The position numbers and the translations under genes are program-made. From an uncultured Pseudomonadales bacterium (GTDB lineage Bacteria; Patescibacteriota; Microgenomatia; UBA1400; Chazhemtobacteraceae), in the NCBI GenBank assembly GCA_964618725.1, contig CAZUBK010000002.1, positions 131,992 through 195,991 of the forward strand: a stretch of 64,000 nucleotides of DNA. The letters run 5' to 3'. The stretch's first letter is position 1. Every line of letters begins with the position of its first letter. Positions 5,556 through 30,844 of the stretch are shown here, one piece after another. Under the pieces are notes generated by a model. That model saw only the letters and a list, made by a program, of their open reading frames with translations, had not been told where the DNA came from and did no database searches.

Positions 5556-7634
5556 TTACTGTCCGTGGGCACGGGAGAAGAACTCATCGGCATTCTTGAT
5601 TAGGACATCGCGCGGTTTGCTGCCCTCAGCGACGCCGACAACACCGGCTTTTTCGAGTTGATCGAGAATGCGGGCGGCTCGAGCATAACCAATGGAGAGG
5701 CGACGTTGAAGAAGTGAGGCAGAGGCCTTGTCGTACTCGACACAGACTCTGACCGAGTCAGTAAAGAGATCATCTACCTCACCTAAAGCCTCGCCTGCGA
5801 GACTGACTTGGGGTTTGGCATGATATGAGGTGGTGACTTCTTGACTGTATTCGGGTTCGACGCCGGCTTTTTTAAGATAGTCAACAAGACTAACTATCTC
5901 GGCATCGTCGACAAAGGTGCCTTGAATACGACGGGGCTTACTATCATCGGGGGGGATGAAGAGCATATCACCTTTACCAAGAAGCTTCTCGGCACCGGGA
6001 GAGTCGATGATGACGCGAGAGTCGATCATAGAGGCGACATTAAAGGCAATACGAGCGGGAATATTGGCCTTGATAAGACCGGTGATGACGTCGACGGACG
6101 GACGTTGGGTAGCGAGGACGAGGTGGATACCAACGGCGCGGGCCATTTGGGCAATACGAGTAATGGCGTCTTCTACATCGGAAGGAGCGAACATAATGAT
6201 ATCGGCGAGTTCGTCGATGACGATGACAATATACGGCATGGCCTGGAAGCCGGAGAGTTCATTGTAAGCGGCAATATTTCGGACGCCGACCTCGGCAAAG
6301 AGTTTGTAGCGGCGTTCCATTTCGGACATGGCCCATTTAAGGGCAGAAACTACTTTCTCGGGATCGGTGATGACGGGAGTGAGAAGGTGGGGGATGTTGT
6401 TGTAGCCGGTTAACTCGACGCGTTTGGGGTCAACGAGAATGAATTTGACTTCAGCTGGAGAGGCGCGGAAAAGAATTGAGGCAATGAAGGCATTGATGGC
6501 GACTGATTTGCCAGAACCAGTGGAGCCGGCGATGAGAATGTGGGGCATTTTGGCCAGATCAGTAACGGTTGGTTCTCCGGCGACGTTGAGGCCTAAAGCG
6601 ACGGCGAGTTTACTTTTGTTGCCTTGAAGAGCGGGGGAGGTAAGCATTTGTTTGAGTGAGACGAACTCGAGAGAGCGATTGGGGACCTCGATCCCGACAA
6701 GGTCACGACCTGGGATGGGGGCTTCAATACGGATCTGTCCTTGAGGAGCAGAGAGAGCCAGGGCGAGGTCAGGGGCGAGGTTGGTGATCTTACTAAGTTT
6801 AGTACCGGTGGCAATACGAATAGCGTATTGAGTAACGGCGGGACCCATGTTGACTTCCTCGACTTTGGTTTCGACACCAAAAGAACCAAGAGTCTTTTCA
6901 ATGATGGCAACATTGCCGTGAATATCCCCTCGATCGGCTTTGTTGCGTTTTTGATCAGAGAGAAGCGAGATTGGGGGGAGCTCCCAAATAGTGGCGTCGC
7001 CCTTGTTGCTGACGAGAGTGGGAGTGACGTCAGAAGAAGAGGGGTTACCTTGTTCAGATTCGTTTAAAGCCATGCCTTTGACTTTGAGTTCGGTAGATGG
7101 GAGGGGGATGTGGGGCTTCAATTTCTTGACATTAGGCAAAACTCTGCCTGTCTTTTGAACAGTTTGGGAGATCTTGTGCAGGGCGGCAACTAGATCTTCG
7201 ATGGAGGTCTCTAAAAAGATAAGTAGACCAATGGCCGTGGCGGCCAGAAAGAGGAGAAAAGAGCCGGCTGGAGTGATCAATTCTGCAATGGAGGTAAAGA
7301 ATTTGAGGCCGATTTCGCCGGCTTTGGTGAGACCAGTGAGGGCGAAGATGGTAATGAGAGCACCAATGAAGATATTGGGGCGGGCGATCTGCCATTTGAC
7401 CTTAGTAATGAGGAGTCCGCCGGAAATGAAGATAAAGGGGAGAAAGAGGAGAACCCAGCCAAAAAAACGGGAGCCTAGTTCATAGATGCGAGTGAGAATG
7501 GGACCTTGTTGAGAGAAGGAGATGGAGATGAGGCCGCCGATACTAATGATGATGACAGCACCAATCGAGGAGAGGGTGTCTTTTTTGAGATTCAGTTTGA
7601 ATGGTTTAGAACGGCGACCTTTTTTACGAGCCAT
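5556..7634 (-). CDS. ftsK: DNA translocase FtsK/SpoIIIE
   Basis: N-terminal TM helices, Walker A GSTGSGKS, and an FtsK motor domain. The C-terminal winged helix (FtsK gamma domain) is present. Confidence 0.9.
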   Translation of the reverse strand: MARKKGRRSKPFKLNLKKDTLSSIGAVIIISIGGLISISFSQQGPILTRIYELGSRFFGWVLLFLPFIFISGGLLITKVKWQIARPNIFIGALITIFALTGLTKAGEIGLKFFTSIAELITPAGSFLLFLAATAIGLLIFLETSIEDLVAALHKISQTVQKTGRVLPNVKKLKPHIPLPSTELKVKGMALNESEQGNPSSSDVTPTLVSNKGDATIWELPPISLLSDQKRNKADRGDIHGNVAIIEKTLGSFGVETKVEEVNMGPAVTQYAIRIATGTKLSKITNLAPDLALALSAPQGQIRIEAPIPGRDLVGIEVPNRSLEFVSLKQMLTSPALQGNKSKLAVALGLNVAGEPTVTDLAKMPHILIAGSTGSGKSVAINAFIASILFRASPAEVKFILVDPKRVELTGYNNIPHLLTPVITDPEKVVSALKWAMSEMERRYKLFAEVGVRNIAAYNELSGFQAMPYIVIVIDELADIIMFAPSDVEDAITRIAQMARAVGIHLVLATQRPSVDVITGLIKANIPARIAFNVASMIDSRVIIDSPGAEKLLGKGDMLFIPPDDSKPRRIQGTFVDDAEIVSLVDYLKKAGVEPEYSQEVTTSYHAKPQVSLAGEALGEVDDLFTDSVRVCVEYDKASASLLQRRLSIGYARAARILDQLEKAGVVGVAEGSKPRDVLIKNADEFFSRAHGQ

Positions 7635-7662
7635 GGCAACAGTATATCGTAAGCTCGTGCCA

Positions 7663-7715
7663 AAGAAAAATCCCCCTGGGAGAGGGGGATCTGTGACCCG
7701 CCGGTGAAGGCGGGT
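7663..7715 (-). terminator. tandem hairpins (acccgcc..ggcgggt and atccccc..gggggat) followed by U-run
   Basis: Two perfect 7-bp GC stems; the second is followed on the minus strand by TTTTCTTTGG. They sit between the small membrane ORFs and ftsK. Confidence 0.4.
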
Positions 7716-7924
7716 AAGAGTTAGATGGACTTACTTATTCAAGGTATCACTAGCGAGATCTGACCACCAAACGAGCATGGCTAACAATGCCAGAGAGATA
7801 AAGACTCCGCTCAAAAGGTATTGGTCGGTAAGTAATAGAAGTGACCCTACCAAAAACAAGGCGAGCATGCAGAGAAATGATGCCAATTGGAGGGGGACCC
7901 TTTGGATTTTCAAGATAGCTCCTT

Positions 7925-8152
7925 TCAAATTGCTTGCAAGATGATAACGATAATCTGTGACATATTGGCAATTACAATGCCGACCACGTAGGCTACTGAT
8001 ATACCGAAGAAAACGTGGAACCAGGACGAGTTGTGTTTGAAAATAGCTGGCGAGATGCGAAGGGCGCTGAGCATGCCAAGGCTTACACTGATGGCCCATC
8101 CTAGTACCCCTGCGACAATTCCGATAAGCGCTGCCTGACTTAAGTTGTCCAA
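7925..8152 (-). CDS. small hydrophobic membrane protein (75 aa), TTG start
   Basis: TTG start is preceded by a perfect SD (TAGGAGGTGAACT-TTG). The sequence shows two predicted TM helices. Confidence 0.5.
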   Translation of the reverse strand: MDNLSQAALIGIVAGVLGWAISVSLGMLSALRISPAIFKHNSSWFHVFFGISVAYVVGIVIANMSQIIVIILQAI

Positions 8153-8195
8153 AGTTCACCTCCTAAAGAATGTGGGTATTATAAGCCTTCTTATC

Positions 8196-9851
8196 TTAAA
8201 CTTCAACTATTACGGTGAGAATGAGGGGGTTACGCTCGGTTTTCTCGTAGATGAACTTCTCGAGGGTGTCTTCGATCTTTTTCCGAAGGAAACCCCAGTC
8301 GGTGACGACGCCGTGTTGGTCGCTTAAGGCTTTCCTCACCTGGCGCTTGATCGAGTCGATTAACTCAACTGATTCCTTCATGTAGACAAAGCCGCGAGAG
8401 ACGATGTCAACTTTACCACTAATTTGGCTGTTGTCGTGCCTAACCGGGACAATGACAACAAGAATGCCGTCAGCCGACATGACTTGGCGATCACGGAGGA
8501 CAACCTTGCCGACGTCGCCGATACCTAAGCCATCGACATAGATATTTTTGAGATCAATTTTGTCACCATAGGTGACCGTGTGATTGGTAACCAAAAGGGA
8601 CTGACCATCCTCGGGAATGAGAGTCTTTTCAGCGCGGTAGCCCAGATCCTCAGTCATTTTGCGGTAGGCAATTTGGTGGCGATAGTTGCCACCGATGGGA
8701 TAAAAGTGTTTGGGTTTGGCGAGACGAACAAGGAGTTCTAGTTCGCCGCGGTAACCGTGGCCAGAGACGTGGAGATCTGAAGTGGTCTCCTTATGAGAGA
8801 CATCGATGCCGACTTTGACGAGGGTATCGATCAGACCGAAGACGGCGGTTTCAGAACCAGGAATGGCGTCAGAGGAGAAGACAACGCGGTCGCCGGGCTT
8901 CAACTTAACAAAGCGATGTTCACCGGTGGCGGCACGGTGCATGGCAGAGCCTTCCTGACCTTGGGAGCCGGCAATAATGAGGGCAATTTGGGAGTCTTTG
9001 AAGTTTCTTATCTGCTCGGGCTTGATAAGAGTGTTCTTGGGGACATTAATAAAGCCTAGCTGCATGGCGAGAGTCAGGTTTCGGTCAACACTTCGACCGA
9101 CTAGGGCAACTTTGCGACCGTGGCGAGCGGCGACGTTGATGGCCATGCCGAAACGGGAGATGGATGAGGAGATGGCGGTGACGATGAATTTGCCTTCGGT
9201 TTTTCTGATTTCTTGATCAAAGGTCTCTTCAATTTTGCGTTCCGGCAGAGTAAATCCGGCTTTCTCGACGCGAAGACAGTCGGAGATAAGGAGATCGATG
9301 CCAGCGTCCCCTGCTCTGGCGATGGCGTTTAAGTCGGGCGGATTGCCATCGGGGGGGGTGAGATCAAACTTGAAGTCAGCCCCATGGTAGACGGTACCAG
9401 CGGGAGTCTTGATGACTAAATGTTTACAATTGGGGATACTGTGGGTGATATGAATGAGATCAACCTTGAAGGGACCAAAGGAGATCCTGTCTTCAATGGT
9501 GCGGAACGGATTGGTCAGACCAAACTCACGGACTTTGACTTCGGCAAGTGCGGCGGTAAGTTTGGATCCATATACGGGTAGATTCTTGGGAAGACGAGGT
9601 AGAACGTAGGAGAGGCCACCGATGTGGTCTTCGTGACCGTGAGTGAGGAGGATAGCGTGAAGCTTTTTTTTACTTTTTTCCAAATAGCTAATGTCGGGGA
9701 TGAGGAGATCGACGCCTGGCATATTGGCGGTCGGGAAACCCATGCCGCAGTCGACAATGAACTGATCATTGCCATACTCGTAGAGATACATATTTTTAGT
9801 AACTTCACCGGCACCACCTAGGGAAATGATTTTGAGAGGAGATTTGAACAT
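8196..9851 (-). CDS. rnj: ribonuclease J (metallo-beta-lactamase/beta-CASP RNase)
   Basis: HGHEDHIGG motif, beta-CASP region, about 550 aa. Confidence 0.85.
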   Translation of the reverse strand: MFKSPLKIISLGGAGEVTKNMYLYEYGNDQFIVDCGMGFPTANMPGVDLLIPDISYLEKSKKKLHAILLTHGHEDHIGGLSYVLPRLPKNLPVYGSKLTAALAEVKVREFGLTNPFRTIEDRISFGPFKVDLIHITHSIPNCKHLVIKTPAGTVYHGADFKFDLTPPDGNPPDLNAIARAGDAGIDLLISDCLRVEKAGFTLPERKIEETFDQEIRKTEGKFIVTAISSSISRFGMAINVAARHGRKVALVGRSVDRNLTLAMQLGFINVPKNTLIKPEQIRNFKDSQIALIIAGSQGQEGSAMHRAATGEHRFVKLKPGDRVVFSSDAIPGSETAVFGLIDTLVKVGIDVSHKETTSDLHVSGHGYRGELELLVRLAKPKHFYPIGGNYRHQIAYRKMTEDLGYRAEKTLIPEDGQSLLVTNHTVTYGDKIDLKNIYVDGLGIGDVGKVVLRDRQVMSADGILVVIVPVRHDNSQISGKVDIVSRGFVYMKESVELIDSIKRQVRKALSDQHGVVTDWGFLRKKIEDTLEKFIYEKTERNPLILTVIVEV

Positions 9852-9867
9852 GAATTAATTTTACAAC

Positions 9868-10272
9868 TTAAATGGGATAACGAATACTCTTATCTAATTT
9901 ATCGAAATCCTTGTCAAAAGTTGCTATTTGATAATATTTTCTTTGAGACACAACAAAAAGCCAGGCATCGACAAAATCGACGTTTTTTTGGCTGAATAAA
10001 TAAAGTGCCTTGAGAACTAGTTTTTTTCGAGTAATGACCCAAGGGTTAGAAACCAAAATCGTAAGTAATTCGGAAATTTTACTCTTTGGAAAGTCAAAAC
10101 GTGAAGTAAAAGTCCAAACGACCTCGGCGATGATAATAGGATCGAGATAAAGTTTAATTTTCCCCGCCTCTGCTTGGGCGAGCAATTGCTTGGCTTTTTG
10201 AAAATGCAAAGGGTGATCTGCAGCTAAAAAACGAATTATTGTATTGGCATCGAGACTGACTATTGAAATCAT
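9868..10272 (-). CDS. vapC: PIN-domain toxin VapC
   Basis: 134 aa PIN fold with acidic residues (D8..., E, D) spaced as in VapC. It overlaps the upstream antitoxin by 4 nt. Confidence 0.75.
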   Translation of the reverse strand: MISIVSLDANTIIRFLAADHPLHFQKAKQLLAQAEAGKIKLYLDPIIIAEVVWTFTSRFDFPKSKISELLTILVSNPWVITRKKLVLKALYLFSQKNVDFVDAWLFVVSQRKYYQIATFDKDFDKLDKSIRYPI

Positions 10273-10532
10273 TTGATTAGTTGATGTCTTTGAGCCAAAT
10301 GGTCCTTAATCATGTGCCGCTCCTGCTTATGAGAGATGTATTTTGAATCAGATTTCAAGGCACCAGCAAGTTGAGTGACAATGTCAGACTTAATCACTTC
10401 TGCCTCAAACCTATTAGCCTTCTTATCAAGACGGAAACGTAGCTTGTGACCTGTTTTGATATCTAATGCTTGGCGAATAAATCCAGGAATGGTGGCTTGG
10501 CCTTTGGAAGTAACCGATGTATATAATTGCAT
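10269..10532 (-). CDS. vapB: AbrB/MazE/SpoVT-type antitoxin VapB
   Basis: N-terminal SpoVT/AbrB swapped-hairpin motif (TSKGQATIP). 87 aa; stop overlaps the vapC start (ATGA). Confidence 0.7.
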   Translation of the reverse strand: MQLYTSVTSKGQATIPGFIRQALDIKTGHKLRFRLDKKANRFEAEVIKSDIVTQLAGALKSDSKYISHKQERHMIKDHLAQRHQLIK

Positions 10533-10883: not shown

Positions 10884-11954
10884 CTACCACTTAGGTAAGA
10901 AGTCCTTGATGTTTTGTTCAGTCAAATGAACATTCTGGGCCTGGCCGGTGACAAACATACGAGCGGACTTGCGAGCGATCCCTTCAAGGGTGCGCTTAAG
11001 AGTACGAATACCGGCATCATAACCGAGGGGCCTCACTATGGTGGACCAGAGGCTTTCTTCGATAGTAATGGTACCGGGGGGGAGGCCGGATTCCTCGAGG
11101 ATCTCGGGGAGGAGATATTCCTTAGCAATGTGGAGCTTTTCATCGTCAGAGTAAGAAGGCATGCGGATGGGTTCGAGACGATCGAGCACTGCTGTGGCAA
11201 CATTGGTAGTGTTGTTACCAGTGGCGATGAAGAGGACTTCTGAGAGATCAACAGGGTAGTCGAGATAGTGGTCAATGAAGTGATAGTTCTGGCCGGGATC
11301 GAGGAGTTCGACGAGAACACCCATGATGTCGGCGCGAGCCTCTACTGTGACACGGTCAATTTCGTCGAGGAGAATAATGGGGTTTTTGACTTTAGTGGTG
11401 GCGAGAGCTTTGATGATGCTACCGGGTTCGGCTTCAAGGTGGAGACGACTTTGGCCACGTAGATCACGAGCCGAACCCATGCCACCGAAGGGAATACGAG
11501 CAATGGGACGGCCTAGCGCGTCAGAAAGAGCATAAGCAAAGGTGGTTTTACCGGTACCAACAAGACCGACTAAGAAAACGATGGGGGCTTTGGCGATGCC
11601 TTTGCCTTGTTCCATACGAAGCTTGAGGACTGACATATATTCGAGAATGCGGTCTTTGACTTCTTGCATACCGTAGTGGTGCTTTTGGAGTGTTTGGGCA
11701 ATCAGATTAAGATCAATTGGCTTGTCGACGCGTTTGTCCCAGGGTAACTGGGTTATCCAATTGATATAGTGGCGGGTACGCTCGAATTCTTCGGAATAGA
11801 AGCCTTGATTGACCATTCTCTGAAGACGATCAACCATTTCGGTGGCTTGTTGTTTGAGATCGGGAGGGCAGACAACGGTATTAAGCTGATCATAGAGGCG
11901 CTTGATATCTTGAGAGACGAGGGAGGTATCTTGTTTGGCAGGAGGTGTGTCCAT
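10884..11954 (-). CDS. Lon-like AAA+ ATPase module without peptidase S16 domain
   Basis: Lon-type Walker A (VGLVGTGKTT), sensor/arginine-finger region and the Lon AAA+ alpha-subdomain (EKLHIAKEYLLPE...AGIRTLKR). The ORF stops where the protease domain would begin. Confidence 0.7.
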   Translation of the reverse strand: MDTPPAKQDTSLVSQDIKRLYDQLNTVVCPPDLKQQATEMVDRLQRMVNQGFYSEEFERTRHYINWITQLPWDKRVDKPIDLNLIAQTLQKHHYGMQEVKDRILEYMSVLKLRMEQGKGIAKAPIVFLVGLVGTGKTTFAYALSDALGRPIARIPFGGMGSARDLRGQSRLHLEAEPGSIIKALATTKVKNPIILLDEIDRVTVEARADIMGVLVELLDPGQNYHFIDHYLDYPVDLSEVLFIATGNNTTNVATAVLDRLEPIRMPSYSDDEKLHIAKEYLLPEILEESGLPPGTITIEESLWSTIVRPLGYDAGIRTLKRTLEGIARKSARMFVTGQAQNVHLTEQNIKDFLPKW

Positions 11955-24462: not shown

Positions 24463-24609
24463 CATTGCTGTTTCGTTCAGGGTAACTTCGTTACTTTCCT
24501 GACTCAACTGCGCTTCCTGTTATAACTGGCGCTATAGTGATCCAGGTGTTCACTATAGCTGGTTATAAACCAGCCCTAAAGGATCTTGATTTTTTGTTAT
24601 GCTCAAGAT

Positions 24610-26001
24610 ATGTTGCTGAGAAAAGAGATAAAGAAATTGATCCCCTTGTTGGTCATTATTTTGGCTTTGCCGATTATTTTGATTGCGGTTCCCGAGGCGG
24701 TGCGATACTTGGGTAGGGCAGGAGGAGTGCCGGCCAATATTGTGGTGGATGTGAGTGCGGTACTTGGACCCTTGCCTCACCCTTGGAGAAACTTGGCTCA
24801 GGGTGGGGAAGAGTTGAGTAGCCCGATGATTGATGATGTGACAAATGAGATCAAACAACTGAAAACGGAGTATGTGCGACTGGATCATTTGTATGATGGA
24901 TACGAGATTGTGAGTCGAGGGGGGGATGGGAGACTGACTTACAGCTGGACAAAGTTGGATGCCGTGGTGGGGGATATCTTAAAGTCGGGAGCCAAACCAT
25001 TCTTGGCACTGTCGTACATGCCCTTGGCAATATCACGCGGCGACATAGTTGATTTACCCCGTGAGTGGGGGGAATGGGAGCAATTAGTAAAAGAAACGGT
25101 GCAGCACTACAGTGGTCGAGCGGGAATGAATATTGCGGATGTGTATTACGAAGTGTGGAATGAACCGGATTTGTTCGGCGGGTTTAAGACATATACCGAC
25201 AAGAATTACTTAACCTTGTATTTACACACAGCGCAGGCGGTAGCGCGAGCTACAAATGTAAATCCGTTTAAGTTGGGTGGTCCGGCGACGACGGCATTGT
25301 ACAAAAACTGGGTAGATAGCTTCCTTAAGTTTGCGGTGAGTAATAATTTGAAACTCGATTTCTATTCCTGGCATCGATATGACACCAATTTGGAGCAATT
25401 TGAGGATGACTGGAACCAGATATATAAATGGTTGGACGATCACCCAGAGAAGGCTGACTTAGAGCTTATGATCACCGAGTGGGGACATAACAGTAATAAC
25501 GACAAGGGCTATGACGGATCTTTTGGAGCAATACATACTTTGGCGGCATCAAGGGTAATGATGGGCCGGATTAGTCGAGGGTTTGTATTTGAGATCAAGG
25601 ATGGACCGGGTACGGAACAATATTGGGGACGATGGGGGCTATTGACCCATGAGAAATGGGGGGCACCTGTTAAGAAACCTCGATTTAGGGCGCTCGAGTT
25701 ACTTAATACCTTGGGAGAGAATCGAGTATCTTTGGCAGGGGAAGGCAGTTGGGTGAAGGGAATTGCGGCGGAAAAAAATGGCGCCATTCAAACGTTGTTA
25801 ATTAACTATGATCCAAAGGTGACACACGAAGAGGCGGTGCCGATTAGATTTGAGGGACTTCCCAGTGGTAACTTTACCTACAAAAGAACCGACTTTATGG
25901 GGGCAACCAGAACAACCCAAGTAGCAACAACCTCGGCGGAATGGGTAACGACCGAGTATATGAAGGCAAATAGTGCGGCGATGTTGGAACTAAGCTTTTG
26001 A
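24610..26001 (+). CDS. clan GH-A glycoside hydrolase (GH39/GH5-like) with N-terminal signal/anchor
   Basis: EVWNEPD (acid/base NEP motif), ITEWG (nucleophile region), N-terminal hydrophobic segment. Start placed at second Met. Confidence 0.5.
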   Translation: MLLRKEIKKLIPLLVIILALPIILIAVPEAVRYLGRAGGVPANIVVDVSAVLGPLPHPWRNLAQGGEELSSPMIDDVTNEIKQLKTEYVRLDHLYDGYEIVSRGGDGRLTYSWTKLDAVVGDILKSGAKPFLALSYMPLAISRGDIVDLPREWGEWEQLVKETVQHYSGRAGMNIADVYYEVWNEPDLFGGFKTYTDKNYLTLYLHTAQAVARATNVNPFKLGGPATTALYKNWVDSFLKFAVSNNLKLDFYSWHRYDTNLEQFEDDWNQIYKWLDDHPEKADLELMITEWGHNSNNDKGYDGSFGAIHTLAASRVMMGRISRGFVFEIKDGPGTEQYWGRWGLLTHEKWGAPVKKPRFRALELLNTLGENRVSLAGEGSWVKGIAAEKNGAIQTLLINYDPKVTHEEAVPIRFEGLPSGNFTYKRTDFMGATRTTQVATTSAEWVTTEYMKANSAAMLELSF

Positions 26002-26030: not shown

Positions 26031-27242
26031 ATGAACAGAAGAGAGGCACTGAAGACAGGGCTTTGGGCGGCGTTATTTATGGCGGGATGTAGAGTGAGAG
26101 AAACAGAGAGAGGAACAGAGCAACCTATGCCAACGGCTCAACCAGAGACGAGCACTCCGAGTACGACCGCAATAGTGACAGAAACTGAGATGGCAACGCA
26201 GACGGCGACAAACGTGCCGATAACGACAGAGACGGCGACAGAGACAGTAGTCTCCTCCCTGACTGCGACAGTAACGCCAGAGATGACGGCGACACCGGAA
26301 GGGATTAGACCGACGCAAGTGAGGGGGATCTATATGCCATATGAGCGGGTTTCTAGATTAGAGGAAGTAAAGAGTACTTTGGAAGGAATGGGAGCCTTGG
26401 GGGCTAATACCCTAGTGGTAGATATCAAAAGTGAGTCAGGTAGAGTTAATGTGCCATTTGAACATGAATTAAAGAATCCCAAGAATGACTGGTTGGATGA
26501 TCCCGAAAATCTGGCTTGGCTCTTGGGGTGGGCAAAGGAGAGAGGGATTTATGTTGTGGGTAGACAAGTGGTGATGAGCGATAGTCGGCTGGTGGAGATG
26601 GATAGGCGTATTGCACTAAGAGACGGCGGGGGGGTGGTGACGAATAGCTCGGGGAATATCTGGCTTGATCCAAGTAACCCCAAAATCGCCGAATACAATG
26701 CGGCGATAGCGAAAGCGGCGGCAGGATTTGGAATAGATGAGATACAGCTGGACTATATTCGATACCCACAAGCGAGACTGGATTTGGAGCTGGAATATCG
26801 AGTGGAAAATATTGCAAGGATTTTGTCCGCGGTTAAAGAAGTACTGGCGGGCACTGGAGTCTTACTGACTGCAGATTTTTTGGAATGGTCGATAACGGCT
26901 TCTGAGACACAGTCAGATGGAGGAGTAGGACAAGATGTACAGAGATTAGCGCTATTGTTGGATGGGTTGTGCCCAATGCTATATCCAGATCTATATATGA
27001 GGGGAATCAGGGTTGATCCATATCAACACCTGTTTACTAGAACAACTTTGGCTCTCGAAAAACTAAGAAAGGGGGGCAACTTAGAGGGGTTTGTTAATCC
27101 ATGGATACAAGCCTACTGGCCACTAGAGACACCAGAAAAAATAGAAGAACAGATGTCGGGGGCGTTTGCCGCCGGAGCATTGGGAGTGCATGCCTGGAAT
27201 GCACGGGGGCACTATGAAAATGGAGCGTTGGTTGATGGGTAG
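26031..27242 (+). CDS. lipoprotein, GHL10/DUF4015-like putative glycoside hydrolase
   Basis: Lipobox-like AALFMAGC, T/E-rich linker, and a TIM-barrel-like region with IDEIQLDYIRYP typical of the DUF4015/YngK family. Confidence 0.45.
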   Translation: MNRREALKTGLWAALFMAGCRVRETERGTEQPMPTAQPETSTPSTTAIVTETEMATQTATNVPITTETATETVVSSLTATVTPEMTATPEGIRPTQVRGIYMPYERVSRLEEVKSTLEGMGALGANTLVVDIKSESGRVNVPFEHELKNPKNDWLDDPENLAWLLGWAKERGIYVVGRQVVMSDSRLVEMDRRIALRDGGGVVTNSSGNIWLDPSNPKIAEYNAAIAKAAAGFGIDEIQLDYIRYPQARLDLELEYRVENIARILSAVKEVLAGTGVLLTADFLEWSITASETQSDGGVGQDVQRLALLLDGLCPMLYPDLYMRGIRVDPYQHLFTRTTLALEKLRKGGNLEGFVNPWIQAYWPLETPEKIEEQMSGAFAAGALGVHAWNARGHYENGALVDG

Positions 27243-27883
27243 CCGAGAAGGTCGATCTTTTTACCTTGATGGGCCAGCGAACCAACTGTGGTTATGGATT
27301 GGTGACCTTGTGAGATTAAGTCGTTTAGCATCGATTGATTGTCTTTGAGCCAAGTGACACATTCGGGACGGGTGTGGAGAAGGACGACGGAGGACTGACC
27401 GGAATCAAGGGCTCTTGGGATCTCGATCTTGGGGTCAACCGGATCCTCGTTGTAGTAGTTCCAGAGGATTGTGGGAATATTAGCTTTAGCGCTTAAGTTG
27501 ATCCAGTTCCAATCCCAATATCCGTAGGGGGGACGCATTGAACGAACGCGATAATCATCTCTTCCGGTTTGATTTTGAATGAAATGCTCGAAGTCAAGGA
27601 GGTCTTGATAGAGGGCAGCGGTGGAGATCCAACCAAACTTCTGATGATCACTGGTGTGAAAACCCAGTTCGTGGCCATCGGAAAAAATTTGGGTAAGGAT
27701 GTCTGATTGAGGATCAGCAGCTAAATAGTTGGTGTTGAGGTAGAAGGTGAGATACCAGTTATTATGTACCAGGAAACCCCCTTTGAGAGGGGGTCTGTAA
27801 TAGGCAGGTGCCGGGGTGTGAGTATTAACTACTCCAAAGGCCGTCTGGAGACTCATCAAAGATGAGATTATCCCAGTAGTCAT
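27212..27883 (-). CDS. polysaccharide deacetylase (CE4/NodB) catalytic domain, motifs 2-3 only
   Basis: HTSDH (NodB motif 2) and RPPYGYWD (motif 3). No SD before its ATG. Motif 1 is found in the upstream overlapping ORF in another frame. Confidence 0.6.
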   Translation of the reverse strand: MTTGIISSLMSLQTAFGVVNTHTPAPAYYRPPLKGGFLVHNNWYLTFYLNTNYLAADPQSDILTQIFSDGHELGFHTSDHQKFGWISTAALYQDLLDFEHFIQNQTGRDDYRVRSMRPPYGYWDWNWINLSAKANIPTILWNYYNEDPVDPKIEIPRALDSGQSSVVLLHTRPECVTWLKDNQSMLNDLISQGHQSITTVGSLAHQGKKIDLLGYPSTNAPFS

Positions 27884-28337
27884 TGTCTTCTTCGTCTATG
27901 ATGACGCTAAGTACTTCCCAAGCTCCGTAGGCTTCGTCGTCTTGATCGGCGACGACCTTGAGTTCGCGAGGGTAGGGATCACGATCTTCTCGATTCTCGT
28001 AATAATAGTCGTCCCAAACGTCTATGTTGTCATGGTCGTCCTCTTCATAGTCGTCGCTCCAGTCGTCTTTGACGGTATTGTCGACGGGGTCCCAGTCATC
28101 GTCATCCCAATCGCCGTCGTCCCAAATGTCATCAGGATAGTTGTAACCGTCCCAATCCTCCCAATCACGGTCGTCTTGGTCGAACCAAAAAAGGTCAATT
28201 CGTCTTTGTTGTTCGAGATCTTGATCGTCAACCAGGCGATCAGCCAAATACTGATCATATTGAACCAGAACTGAAAAAGGCGAATTGCCACGACGAACTG
28301 ACTGGAGCTTGGCATTCGCGATATGAAAATTGGTCAT
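27825..28337 (-). CDS. hyper-acidic D/W/E/Y-rich region ending in NodB motif 1 (LIFDESPDG); probable N-terminal part of the deacetylase
   Basis: GGAGG SD 4-5 nt before the ATG. About 40% D+E and about 9% W (DWDDDDWD repeats). The C-terminus matches the TFDDGP motif of CE4 enzymes. Confidence 0.5.
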   Translation of the reverse strand: MTNFHIANAKLQSVRRGNSPFSVLVQYDQYLADRLVDDQDLEQQRRIDLFWFDQDDRDWEDWDGYNYPDDIWDDGDWDDDDWDPVDNTVKDDWSDDYEEDDHDNIDVWDDYYYENREDRDPYPRELKVVADQDDEAYGAWEVLSVIIDEEDNDYWDNLIFDESPDGLWSS

Positions 28338-28416
28338 AATTCCTCCAGGTGATGGAAAATGAGCGAGAAGGATATTTAAGCATGAAAGTGAGGTTGTGTC
28401 AACTATTATAAGGTGG

Positions 28417-28444
28417 AAAAGGCGACCGGTTAAGGTCGCCTTTT
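28417..28444 (-). terminator. intrinsic terminator after acidic protein 2
   Basis: aaaaggcgacc-ggttaa-ggtcgcctttt hairpin. Confidence 0.4.
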
Positions 28445-28456
28445 GAAAAAATCTGG

Positions 28457-28975
28457 TTATTCCCAGTAGTCGGGTCCACCCTCTCCATCACCGTAGTAGA
28501 CGTGGGTTAGAGGATAATCGTCATCACCCTCTTCTTCAGGGTCATAGGGCACATCGTCGGCGTACTTGTCCCAGTAATAGTCATCCCAGGCTGCCTCGGC
28601 GTCGGCTTCGTCTTGGGCTGCCTGATCAGCCAGCCATTCGTCGAGCATTTCGCCGAAGGCCTCTTCCATTTCGGCATTGATGCGTGCGATTTCTTCCTGA
28701 TTCTCTTTGATGTACAGATCCCAGAGGTCGGCATCCGAAAGATGGGATGGCTCGGCCTGAGAGTCATCGAACATGGCCTGATAGGCGACCTCTTCTTCCG
28801 CCAAGTGGGTCTGATACTCAAGCTCGTATTGACGGTCTTCCTCCTCGCGGAGGAGACGCTCTTCCTCCTGCTGGCGGAAATAGTCCTTCAGGTCTTTCTT
28901 GGAGGCGGCGTTGACGGCGTGGGGGAAGAAACGATAAAGGAATTCGAACCAGAGTTCGTGAATTTTTGAGAACAT
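28457..28975 (-). CDS. hyper-acidic E/D/W/Y-rich protein (172 aa), paralogous in composition to 27825-28337
   Basis: AAGGAG SD 7 nt before the ATG. Putative TTGACA-18-TACAGT promoter at 29024-29053. About 35% D+E, with DYW/DDYYWD motifs. Confidence 0.55.
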   Translation of the reverse strand: MFSKIHELWFEFLYRFFPHAVNAASKKDLKDYFRQQEEERLLREEEDRQYELEYQTHLAEEEVAYQAMFDDSQAEPSHLSDADLWDLYIKENQEEIARINAEMEEAFGEMLDEWLADQAAQDEADAEAAWDDYYWDKYADDVPYDPEEEGDDDYPLTHVYYGDGEGGPDYWE

Positions 28976-29065
28976 TTGATTGCTCCTTTAAACTGGATAA
29001 GGTGCGAGAGGTGTAACTGACGTTACTGTATCACGTTATGGGGCTTTTTGTCAAGTTGTCTGGCC

Positions 29066-30844
29066 TCAGAAGGGGATTTTGAAGGCCTCGGGAGGAATGT
29101 TGACGGAGCCGAAGGACTTCATGCGTTTTTTGCCTTTTTTCTGCTTTTCTAGGAGCTTGGTACGCCTAGTATTGTCTCCTCCGTAAAGCTTGGCAGTGAC
29201 GTCTTTTCTGAAGGATTTGACGGTTTCCCGGGCGATAATGCTACCACCAATGGCGACTTGGATTGGGATCTCAAACTGGTGGCGGGGGACAGCTTCCTTG
29301 AGGTGGGCGGCCAGGCGACGAGCCAAACTTTCGGCATTTTGGGTAACAACGAGAGTGGAGAGGGGCTCGATTTTCTCTTTGTTGAGATAAACGTCGAGTT
29401 TAATCAATTTGACTGTTTGATAGTCATAGGGCTGATAGTCAAACGTGGCGAAGCCCTGAGAGACGGATTTAATGGCATCTTGGAGGCCAGTGATGACTTC
29501 GATGAGGGGGATGGTGTAAGAAAGCTCCACTGAGTGGGGAAGATAGCGGGTATCGATTAGGGTACCGCGTTTGCTTTCAAGAACTTGGATGAGGGGGCCG
29601 ACATAGGTAGCGGGAGTGAGAAGAGTGACGAGGCTAACTGGCTCCCGGGCGTCTTTTATGGTGGCTGGGTCAGGGTAGTCGGTGGCGCGATTGATGCGGA
29701 TGGTTTCCCCGGAAATAAGATCAAGTTCATATTCAACCGAGGGGGCAGTATATGTAACCTGCAATTCAAATTCGCGCTCGAGGCGTTCTTTGATAACGTC
29801 AGCATGGAGGAGGCCCAGGAAGCCGACTCTAACGCCGTTACCCATAGCAGGAGAGCTTGTCGGGGTATAGGTGAGAGCGGCATCGGAAAGTTTCAGCTTG
29901 GCGATGGCGTCGAGAAGCAATTGGTAATCGACAGTGTCGAGGGGATAGATCTCAAGATAGACATTGGGGCGGATTTGGCGATAGCCGGGGAGTGCGGATA
30001 CGTCTGGAGAGGAGACGGTGGTGATCGTGTCACCTACTTGGACGTCCTCAAGGCTTTTGAGCCCAGTGGCAATATAGCCGACCTGACCGGTTTGTAGACT
30101 TTGGGTTTGCGTCATACCGGGCCTAAATATACCGATTTGTTTGGGGACGATTTCTTTATGGGTAGCCAGAAACTTGAGTCTTGATAGATGGTCGAGTTGG
30201 CCGTCGATAACACGAATAAAGGCAACGACCCCGAGATGGGGATGGAAAAAGGAATTGAAGACAAGAGCTCTGAGGGGTCGGACAGAATGACTGGAGGGAG
30301 CGGGGATTTGATCAATAACAGCAGAAAGAATCTGCTCGACATTTTGGCCGGTTTTAGCTGAGATATGGATAAAATGGTCGAGATCGGGAAAGAGACTTTT
30401 AAGAGATTCCTCGGTTTTCTCCGGCTCGGCCAGATCGGCGTCGATTTTGTTGATGATGGGGATAACTTTAAGTTTCTGGGCCTCAGCAAGTCTTAGGTTG
30501 GCCAAAGTCTGGGCTTGGATGCCTTTGGTGGCATCGATGAGAAGGAGGGCGCCTTCGCAGGCGGCGAGGCTCCGTTCTACCTCATAGTTAAAGTCGATGT
30601 GACCGGGGGTATCAATGAGATTGAGTTGATAATCTTGGCCTTTGTAGGGGAAATCTAGAGTGACGGGAGCAAGCTTAATGGTGATACCGCGCTCCTGTTC
30701 GATGGGGTTGCTGTCAAGAAGTCGCTGCTTGAGGTCTCGCTTTGAGACGGTATGGGTCTGCTCAAGAAGACGGTCAGTGAGAGTAGTCTTGCCATGATCG
30801 ATATGGGCAATGATACTGAAATTACGAATGTTAGATTGATTCAC
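29066..30844 (-). CDS. lepA: elongation factor 4 (LepA)
   Basis: IIAHIDHGKTTL G domain plus the LepA-specific C-terminal domain. 592 aa. Confidence 0.9.
   Translation of the reverse strand: MNQSNIRNFSIIAHIDHGKTTLTDRLLEQTHTVSKRDLKQRLLDSNPIEQERGITIKLAPVTLDFPYKGQDYQLNLIDTPGHIDFNYEVERSLAACEGALLLIDATKGIQAQTLANLRLAEAQKLKVIPIINKIDADLAEPEKTEESLKSLFPDLDHFIHISAKTGQNVEQILSAVIDQIPAPSSHSVRPLRALVFNSFFHPHLGVVAFIRVIDGQLDHLSRLKFLATHKEIVPKQIGIFRPGMTQTQSLQTGQVGYIATGLKSLEDVQVGDTITTVSSPDVSALPGYRQIRPNVYLEIYPLDTVDYQLLLDAIAKLKLSDAALTYTPTSSPAMGNGVRVGFLGLLHADVIKERLEREFELQVTYTAPSVEYELDLISGETIRINRATDYPDPATIKDAREPVSLVTLLTPATYVGPLIQVLESKRGTLIDTRYLPHSVELSYTIPLIEVITGLQDAIKSVSQGFATFDYQPYDYQTVKLIKLDVYLNKEKIEPLSTLVVTQNAESLARRLAAHLKEAVPRHQFEIPIQVAIGGSIIARETVKSFRKDVTAKLYGGDNTRRTKLLEKQKKGKKRMKSFGSVNIPPEAFKIPF

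Follow-up and report, generated by a model that had tools for sequence, protein, structure and literature searches.

Within a stretch of 64,000 nucleotides (nt) of contig CAZUBK010000002.1, which was analysed at its full length and is called the window in what follows, two adjacent open reading frames (ORFs) on the minus strand, A (27825-28337, 170 amino acids, aa) and B (28457-28975, 172 aa), each starting with ATG, encode hyper-acidic products studded with tryptophan and tyrosine. We regard it as very probable that A and B are real orphan genes for cytoplasmic polyanions, carried on a cassette and not fused to the polysaccharide deacetylase (CE4) gene beside them. The cassette is a lineage-specific segment of 1.3 kb (27767-29062, no strand assigned), which lies between the end of homology in lepA and the start of homology in the CE4 gene. 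As a possible explanation of the whole, to which we assign a probability of roughly 35% for gene reality, cassette and mechanism taken jointly, the two proteins would mimic nucleic acid and serve as electrostatic decoys.

The composition that a preliminary description of this region had singled out is confirmed, and A and B are the most acidic ORFs of the window. A contains 44 D and 12 E (32.9%), 11 W (6.5%), 11 Y (6.5%) and 12 K+R (7%), B contains 23 D and 29 E (30.2%), 6 W (3.5%), 14 Y (8.1%) and 12 K+R (7%); the calculated net charges are -44 and -40, and Trp and Tyr together make up 12-13% across the two proteins. Measured against a background of the 43 window ORFs of at least 200 aa (D+E mean 11.8%, standard deviation 2.9; W+Y mean 4.4%, standard deviation 2.3), their acidity lies 6-7 standard deviations out and their W+Y share about 3. 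Ranked by acidity among 238 window ORFs they come first and second by a wide margin, and nowhere else among the ORFs of at least 80 aa in 1.18 Mb of fetched DNA does D+E of at least 25% coincide with W+Y of at least 10%. The share of 35-40% D+E claimed earlier is too high for the proteins as wholes (30-33%); 40% is reached only over residues 36-170 of A, and 50% over its core at 53-120, where there is about one aromatic residue per 5 residues and, in the extended chain, a carboxylate about every 7 Angstrom. The motifs quoted in the preliminary description were all found, namely DWDDDDWD (A 76-83), NDYWDN (A 152-157), DDYYWDKY (B 131-138) and PDYWE (B 168-172).

Below the level of these motifs the acidic residues are broken up, as the longest D/E run in either protein is at most 4 residues, and Trp or Tyr stands next to Asp or Glu no more frequently than composition predicts. 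Asp accounts for 26% of A, local D-x-D-G and DDGD strings occur, and residues 56-120 of A are of low complexity (entropy 2.97 bits). Simple tandem-repeat expansion was rejected as the source of this composition, since TRF (Tandem Repeats Finder) finds no tandem DNA repeat behind it; the sole repeats found are short, imperfect and at the codon level, matching DDxWD units (families D1, D2 and D8). The GAY-rich DNA of the region is open in three frames, and the antisense ORFs opposite A and B have neither a Pfam match nor a Shine-Dalgarno site. Scoring by codon usage is uninformative here, because strand bias dominates it.

Searches for relatives of the two proteins returned the queries themselves. 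A matched only itself in a word-indexed search of 5.8 billion clusters and again in an exhaustive phmmer search over 1.84 billion representatives, and B matched only itself in the word-indexed search. No relatives of either were present in IMG/VR, the JGI metagenomes, the INPHARED phages or the PLSDB plasmids, and nothing was obtained from Pfam, NCBIfam, PHROGs, PADLOC or the sequences of the PDB, the sole matches of B being sub-threshold ones between its Glu/Arg/Gln-rich helix and low-complexity families. Literature searches likewise did not turn up bacterial proteins described as similarly W-rich and hyper-acidic. Judged by these libraries, A and B are orphans with new sequences and no family, which bears out the earlier impression that they do not represent a standard one; their kind is nonetheless familiar, that of acidic orphans which are confined to one lineage and encoded at a variable hotspot of the chromosome. 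The preliminary description had been prepared to give up the pair if neither ORF was conserved at the protein level in any relative. Such conservation is essentially absent for B and nearly so for A, which has one marginal positional homologue, and the comparison is a weak test because the nearest sampled relative shares only 79% LepA identity. A phage or plasmid origin of the pair was rejected, as the viral, phage and plasmid sets gave no matches.

The location of A and B was compared across eleven distinct relatives (loci L082 and L084-L095). The upstream flank of the site is the conserved lepA gene (EF4; 29066-30844, minus strand) and its far flank a conserved gene for a GH39-family glycoside hydrolase (24586-26001, plus strand), convergent with lepA. 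LepA identities range from 59 to 79% in the relatives, with 79%, 79%, 72% and 66% for the nearest sampled ones, and the best named LepA matches are to 'Patescibacteria group bacterium' at 53-55% identity, which puts the genome among Patescibacteria-like bacteria. In five of the eleven relatives (L082, L086, L088, L089/90 and L091/92) lepA directly adjoins the convergent GH39 gene. The junction holds differing inserts in the other six: ORFs of 164 and 101 aa with CE4 and DUF4015 genes in L084, ORFs of 112 and 196 aa in L085, ORFs of 211 and 75 aa with ParE/Phd in L087, DinB with an 86-aa ORF and NUDIX in L093, a 322-aa ORF in L094, and ORFs of 109, 137 and 245 aa in L095. Among the small hotspot ORFs of L084, L085 and L087, which were scanned against Pfam, none reached the threshold of a family, and the other hotspot ORFs examined contain 8-19% D+E, far below A and B.

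Between the window and its relatives, DNA homology extends as far as 29063-29074 and is found again from about 27766, within CE4, or from about 26000, within GH39, and the cassette has neither a DNA nor a protein counterpart in the sampled relatives. Because homology ends and resumes at the borders of 27767-29062, A and B sit on a unique 1.3-kb segment in a hotspot of fast turnover. The cassette is also the stretch of lowest GC skew in the window (rank 2 of 1255 windows), mostly owing to G-first codons on the minus strand. The third-position GC skew, given for the plus strand, is 0.27 in B and 0.43 in A, against 0.45-0.78 in 16 other minus-strand genes, and these low values hint that the cassette is incompletely ameliorated to the strand bias of its host. 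Boundaries of a mobile element were rejected for this segment, as no convincing direct or inverted repeats flank it. Overprinting on decayed ancestral genes was likewise rejected, since tblastn with the hotspot proteins of L084 and L085 and with the CE4 N-terminal domain found nothing in the cassette.

On its other side the cassette meets a damaged gene. What remains of CE4 covers 27212-27766 on the minus strand, and the ORF itself (27212-27883) reaches further solely through an out-of-frame overlap of 59 nt with A (27825-27883); the two lie in different frames, and gene callers also split them. The fusion of one acidic ORF to a polysaccharide deacetylase, as proposed in the preliminary description, is therefore rejected, the frames being different and the CE4 homology starting only at about 27766. 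L084, with 79% LepA identity, retains an intact CE4 lipoprotein of 437 aa (6925-8238) with a signal peptide, an N-terminal domain of about 240 aa and the motif TVDDG. The window CE4 aligns over 27766-27233 with residues 261-436 of this protein at 64% identity; it is devoid of the lipoprotein signal, the N-terminal domain and TVDDG, the first catalytic or metal motif (T-x-D-D), and its Pfam match starts at position 28 of the 124 in the model. Because only residues 261-436 of the L084 protein align, the window CE4 is, on the alignment, a 5'-truncated remnant, and it is probably a pseudogene.

The pair is not kept beside CE4 enzymes either, as in L084, where CE4 is intact, unrelated and non-acidic ORFs occupy the site. 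A functional link of A and B to CE4 enzymes seems unlikely, given that L084 lacks A and B and that in the window the segment with A and B stands in the place of CE4 codons 1-261. Annotation pipelines call the remnant as a protein of 214-223 aa. Convergent with it, and overlapping its 3' end by 31 nt, is a DUF4015 gene for a putative glycosyl hydrolase (26031-27242, plus strand), with a Tat/lipobox-like leader and a Thr/Glu/Pro-rich linker of about 70 residues.

The preliminary description had further credited both ORFs with good Shine-Dalgarno sites and with terminators of their own. The former are readily seen in the sequence, as AAGGAG for B (28983-28988, minus strand), 7 nt before the ATG, and as GGAGGA for A (28341-28346, minus strand), whose GGAGG core lies 4 nt from the ATG. 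A consensus scan adds a promoter-like site for each, on the minus strand and with 10 of 12 matches in both cases: TTGACA, an 18-nt spacer and TACAGT with TG before the -10 element for B (29025-29054), and TTAACC, a 17-nt spacer and TATAAT for A (28405-28433). B is followed by a terminator-like hairpin (28417-28444, minus strand) with an 11-bp stem (AAAAGGCGACC/GGTCGCCTTTT), a 6-nt loop and a folding energy of -17.9 kcal/mol (z = -5.5), the 3' arm of which overlaps the promoter-like site of A. After A stands a G+C-rich hairpin of 9 bp (27774-27796, minus strand; AGACCCCCU/AGGGGGUUU), just inside the cassette boundary and just upstream of the CE4 remnant; its only UUU lies inside the stem with no further U tract, and it folds no better than shuffled sequences (z = -1.6). 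This hairpin, of the form CCCCC-N-GGGGGTTT (27774-27793), occurs as a single instance in the 64-kb window, directly after A. A terminator of its own is thus well recognizable for B and less clearly so for A, and the separate transcription claimed for the two, for which the evidence is of the consensus kind, is well supported for B and less so for A. It is plausible that A and B form two separate transcription units. Altogether, ORFs, ATGs, Shine-Dalgarno sites, promoter-like sites and hairpins tile the cassette, and the layout of Shine-Dalgarno site, promoter and terminator exists on the minus strand only. Across 11,144 nt that include both cassette junctions, an independent Logan assembly agrees with the sequence at 100% identity.

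Neither protein has a signal peptide, a lipobox or a membrane anchor, in agreement with what had been noticed at the outset; the N-termini are polar or amphipathic, and hydrophobic stretches are absent, the Kyte-Doolittle mean of 19-residue segments peaking at 0.34 in A and 0.31 in B. Because export signals are missing, the products of both genes are read as staying in the cytoplasm. Both fall on the disordered side of the boundary in a charge-hydropathy plot. Single-sequence AlphaFold2 gives no fold for A, with a predicted local distance difference test score (pLDDT) of 38.8 and a weak strand-strand-helix at residues 10-35, so that A is predicted to be almost wholly disordered. In B the same method places helices at 4-21, 26-74 and 81-138, with block-mean pLDDT up to 96 in the latter two (predicted template modelling score 0.31), followed by an acidic and aromatic tail at 139-172 predicted to be disordered (block-mean pLDDT of about 44-57); the model therefore depicts B as a long scaffold of two helices with this tail at its end. 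When the B model was used for fold searches, only generic coiled-coil matches resulted, and the A model was too poor for such a search. With its high charge, low hydropathy and lack of a confident fold, A has the properties of intrinsically disordered polyanionic proteins, and so has B in its tail (139-172), which is predicted to be disordered.

One gene among the relatives may be related to A. In L085 the 196-aa ORF occupies the same position as A and is, at 18% D+E, much less acidic. The two C-termini are similar (...DEEIFNSAPDGRW in the L085 ORF, ...DNLIFDESPDGLWSS in A), as are stretches near the N-termini (...YNQYLAE and YDQYLAD, respectively). At full length, and against shuffles that preserve composition, the pair scores z = 3.0 in local alignment (a value attained by 22 of 2000 shuffles) and z = 3.6 in global alignment (by 10 of 2000). 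The C-terminal pattern [ILVF]F[DNES]xxPDG followed by xW is present in 2 of 10,863 ORFs, which are A and the L085 ORF, and the 3' ends of both genes also align as DNA, each followed by a C5-loop-G5-T3 hairpin. Homology between A and the L085 ORF is on these grounds probable but unproven. Since the two are 27% identical, against 72% for LepA, A would, if the homology is real, be a very fast-evolving gene, the hyper-acidity of which would be specific to its lineage.

A weaker likeness connects A and B themselves, as their tails have a collinear WDDYY...PY...DYW(D/E) pattern in common; z is about 4 for segments picked after the pattern had been seen, and 2.3 at full length. In L085 two identical 29-nt copies of a hairpin (AACCCCCAACCATCCCGGCTGGGGGTTTT), at 8983-9011 and 9723-9751, flank the A-like 196-aa gene, and hairpins of the CCCCC/GGGGG type may be a signature of the insertion or duplication of single-gene cassettes. 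The same locus carries a 151-aa orphan between GH39 and hrcA (11212-11667, minus strand) with 6% Trp and 19% D+E, for example in CEWEDLDGLDWTEDNLDHD; its resemblance to A or B is not significant (z of about 1).

In order to account for these observations together, we favour a reading in which A and B are separately expressed, lineage-specific genes on a 1.3-kb cassette that would have come to lie at the lepA/GH39 hotspot, at a site where the first ~261 codons of the neighbouring CE4 are missing. Their products would work as nucleic-acid decoys by virtue of their charge, carboxylates taking the part of phosphates and Trp and Tyr that of stacked bases. On partners such as nucleases, restriction or defence enzymes or nucleoid proteins they could fill the basic clefts that bind nucleic acid and thereby block or regulate these partners, and the C-terminal (I/L)F-x3-PDG-x-W motif and the WDDYY...PY...DYW(D/E) pattern might provide the specific contacts. 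Mimicry or sequestration of basic partners appears to be the most economical function for a small cytoplasmic protein with a charge of -40 and interspersed aromatic residues. In the core of A the carboxylates, about 7 Angstrom apart along the extended chain, are spaced much as phosphates are in single-stranded nucleic acid in its extended form. That short motifs are under selection is suggested by the C-terminal motif that A and the L085 ORF have in common, by the z scores of that pair against shuffles, and by the tail pattern of A and B. Taken by itself, the decoy mechanism remains rather doubtful, and beyond composition its one support is the accessory character of the hotspot. We further speculate, as a long shot, that A and B found an undescribed patescibacterial class of Trp/Tyr-studded polyanions, which would mimic single-stranded nucleic acid, dock onto partners by a conserved C-terminal hook, (I/L)F-x3-PDG-x-W, and be traded via a chromosomal hotspot as anti-defence or regulatory cargo.

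Several observations weigh against the decoy reading. No sequence, profile or fold link to a known mimic or anti-defence protein was detected, no phage or plasmid relatives turned up in IMG/VR, INPHARED or PLSDB, and neither an integrase nor a mobile-element signature nor flanking repeats were found in the window. The known DNA mimics are compact and folded, and A has no predicted fold (pLDDT 38.8). The cassette lacks a gene for a candidate partner, and purifying selection is not measurable on genes that a single genome carries. The similarities of A to the L085 ORF and to B are marginal and were in part noticed before they were tested. In addition, acidic runs are costly to translate in bacteria on account of intrinsic ribosome destabilisation, according to a published account (PMC9718836), an objection tempered here by the fact that A and B contain no D/E run of more than 4 residues.

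Comparison with known systems shows both the appeal and the strain of the decoy reading. Ocr (gp0.3 of phage T7) and ArdA are anti-restriction proteins that act in this manner, by mimicking DNA, and Ocr is a proven case. Ocr contains 34 acidic and 6 basic residues in 116 (29% and 5%; PMC3439906). The corresponding counts are 56 and 12 in 170 for A and 52 and 12 in 172 for B, so that the small size (116-170 aa) and acidic excess of Ocr and ArdA recur in the pair; the two sides are also alike in having no export signal, and Ocr is helical and elongated, as predicted for B. They differ in that A and B have no sequence, profile or fold similarity to Ocr or ArdA, which are compact folded dimers, whereas A is predicted to be disordered. 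Ocr and ArdA are borne by phages, plasmids and transposons, whereas A and B are chromosomal and lie between core genes in a variable hotspot, and Trp/Tyr enrichment is no stated hallmark of Ocr and ArdA. DMP12 and DMP19, DNA mimics encoded on the Neisseria chromosome (PMC3643605; PMC3384305), work by the kind of mechanism proposed here for A and B. They are, however, conserved across their genus and have solved compact folds, whereas A and B are orphans of one genome for which no globular fold is predicted and no homology to them was detected.

Closer in physical character are shorter segments of other proteins. Acidic tails that mimic nucleic acid include the MazE tail on MazF and the acidic tips of SSB and T7 gp2.5. 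These share with A and B a disordered acidic stretch and C-terminal aromatic residues (A ends in ...IFDESPDGLWSS, B in ...GGPDYWE), but they comprise 10-30 residues on a folded DNA-binding domain, whereas the acidic part of A and B extends over 50-135 residues and no such domain is detectable. For the acidic disordered regions of the histone chaperones Npm2 and Nap1, a role as DNA-charge mimics that shield basic proteins has been proposed (PMC10987829). They are polyanionic disordered chains like those of A and B, but they are eukaryotic, Glu-rich and not Asp/Trp-rich, and attached to folded chaperone cores. Orphan ORFs of hotspots in general resemble the pair in their restriction to one genome, in a site bounded by core genes and in relatives that carry unrelated orphans, toxin-antitoxin or repair genes there; the composition of A and B is far more extreme (8-19% D+E in the others).

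The main rival explanation, which we consider unlikely, holds that A and B are young or neutrally drifting ORFs with no selected function, that is, 'proto-genes' being gained or lost in recently acquired or scrambled DNA, with a low-complexity Asp/Trp-rich sequence that remains open by accident. Their strict orphan status would fit, with A (among 1.84 billion representatives) and B matching only themselves, as would the fast turnover of a hotspot that holds differing orphan ORFs without Pfam matches in the relatives, the GAY-rich DNA open in three frames, the lack of a predicted fold in A, and the imperfect DDxWD repeats at the codon level, which suggest growth of a slippage type. Each of the two ORFs nevertheless comes with its own ATG, strong Shine-Dalgarno site, promoter-like site and hairpin, an organisation beyond chance, and the bias towards G-first codons has not been erased by the strong GC skew of the host. 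A moreover has a probable homologue with a conserved C-terminus in a relative of only 72% LepA identity, and the helices of B are confidently predicted from a single sequence (pLDDT up to 96). An even more sceptical position would make the pair an artefact, be it an assembly chimera, the wrong strand or a translated low-complexity stretch of non-coding DNA. Presence in one genome and the low complexity of A 56-120 (2.97 bits) are compatible with this, but no base differs between two assemblies across both junctions, a tandem repeat is absent, and the layout of expression signals is confined to the minus strand, which leaves the artefact extremely improbable.

Among the functional alternatives, high-capacity binding or buffering of Ca2+ or Mg2+, by analogy with calsequestrin, would make use of the 26% Asp in A, the D-x-D-G and DDGD strings and the charge of -40 to -44. 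We hold it to be quite improbable, because Pfam and NCBIfam matched no EF-hand, RTX, dockerin, TSP3 or other Ca-binding profile in A or B, the abundance of Trp and Tyr would be left unexplained in proteins that are cytoplasmic, and relatives that presumably have the same ion needs do not conserve them. The neighbourhood of CE4, DUF4015 and GH39 might instead point to accessory modules of these enzymes, either binders of cationic polysaccharides, since acidic and aromatic residues would suit cationic amino-sugar polymers, or cell-wall-associated proteins, as the preliminary description had envisaged. This explanation is largely refuted and very improbable: A and B have no signal peptide, lipobox or anchor, whereas the L084 CE4 and the window DUF4015 have lipoprotein-type leaders; without any export signal a role at the cell wall is unlikely. 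The adjoining CE4 has itself lost the signal peptide, the N-terminal domain and the first catalytic motif, and neither L084, with intact CE4 and DUF4015, nor the relatives with GH39 only possess A and B.

A final candidate for A, a MazE/AbrB-type antitoxin with an expanded acidic, Trp-containing tail for toxin binding, arose from the resemblance of its N-terminal VRRGNSPFSVLV to KRWGNSPAVRIP of MazE (the 'RRGNSP' lead), from three collinear weak BLAST segments against E. coli MazE (E 0.22-0.37, including HDNIDVW against HENIDW) and from the AlphaFold2 strand-strand-helix at 10-35. It was rejected and is scarcely credible, since Pfam on the isolated N-terminus of A (1-56 and 1-70) was empty at E <= 10, and custom unfiltered hidden Markov models of MazE/ChpS/PemI and of AbrB did not place A among the best 8 of 751 window ORFs. 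The same AbrB profile recovers a genuine AbrB/PrlF-type antitoxin at 10269-10532, which serves as an internal positive control, and the cassette holds no toxin gene, its neighbours being lepA and the CE4 remnant.

Should the decoy reading be true, no nucleic-acid mimics would have been described before A and B from bacteria of the candidate phyla radiation (CPR), and the pair would represent an unusually disordered and aromatic-rich version of the mimic strategy. They could then help to understand how CPR episymbionts handle foreign DNA or the nucleases of their hosts. With one genome and no partner, the pair is a curiosity rather than a discovery. Whatever the function, the annotation is corrected on two points, as A is not fused to CE4 and all that is left of the CE4 gene is a truncated remnant. 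The space between lepA and GH39 is documented as an insertion hotspot with rapid turnover in this lineage, and two orphan proteins of extreme composition are flagged as cheap candidates for expression and binding tests.

Elsewhere in the window, the AbrB/PrlF-like antitoxin belongs to a VapBC-type pair (9868-10532, minus strand), in which the 87-aa antitoxin (10269-10532) overlaps the toxin gene by 4 nt; the toxin is a PIN-domain protein of 134 aa (9868-10272; PF01850, E = 5e-10). Regardless of gene orientation, the window has a strong plus-strand GC skew that is uniform along its length (0.11-0.38 per 2 kb), and the skew keeps its sign at about 32.6-33 kb, where gene orientation flips from mostly minus to mostly plus.

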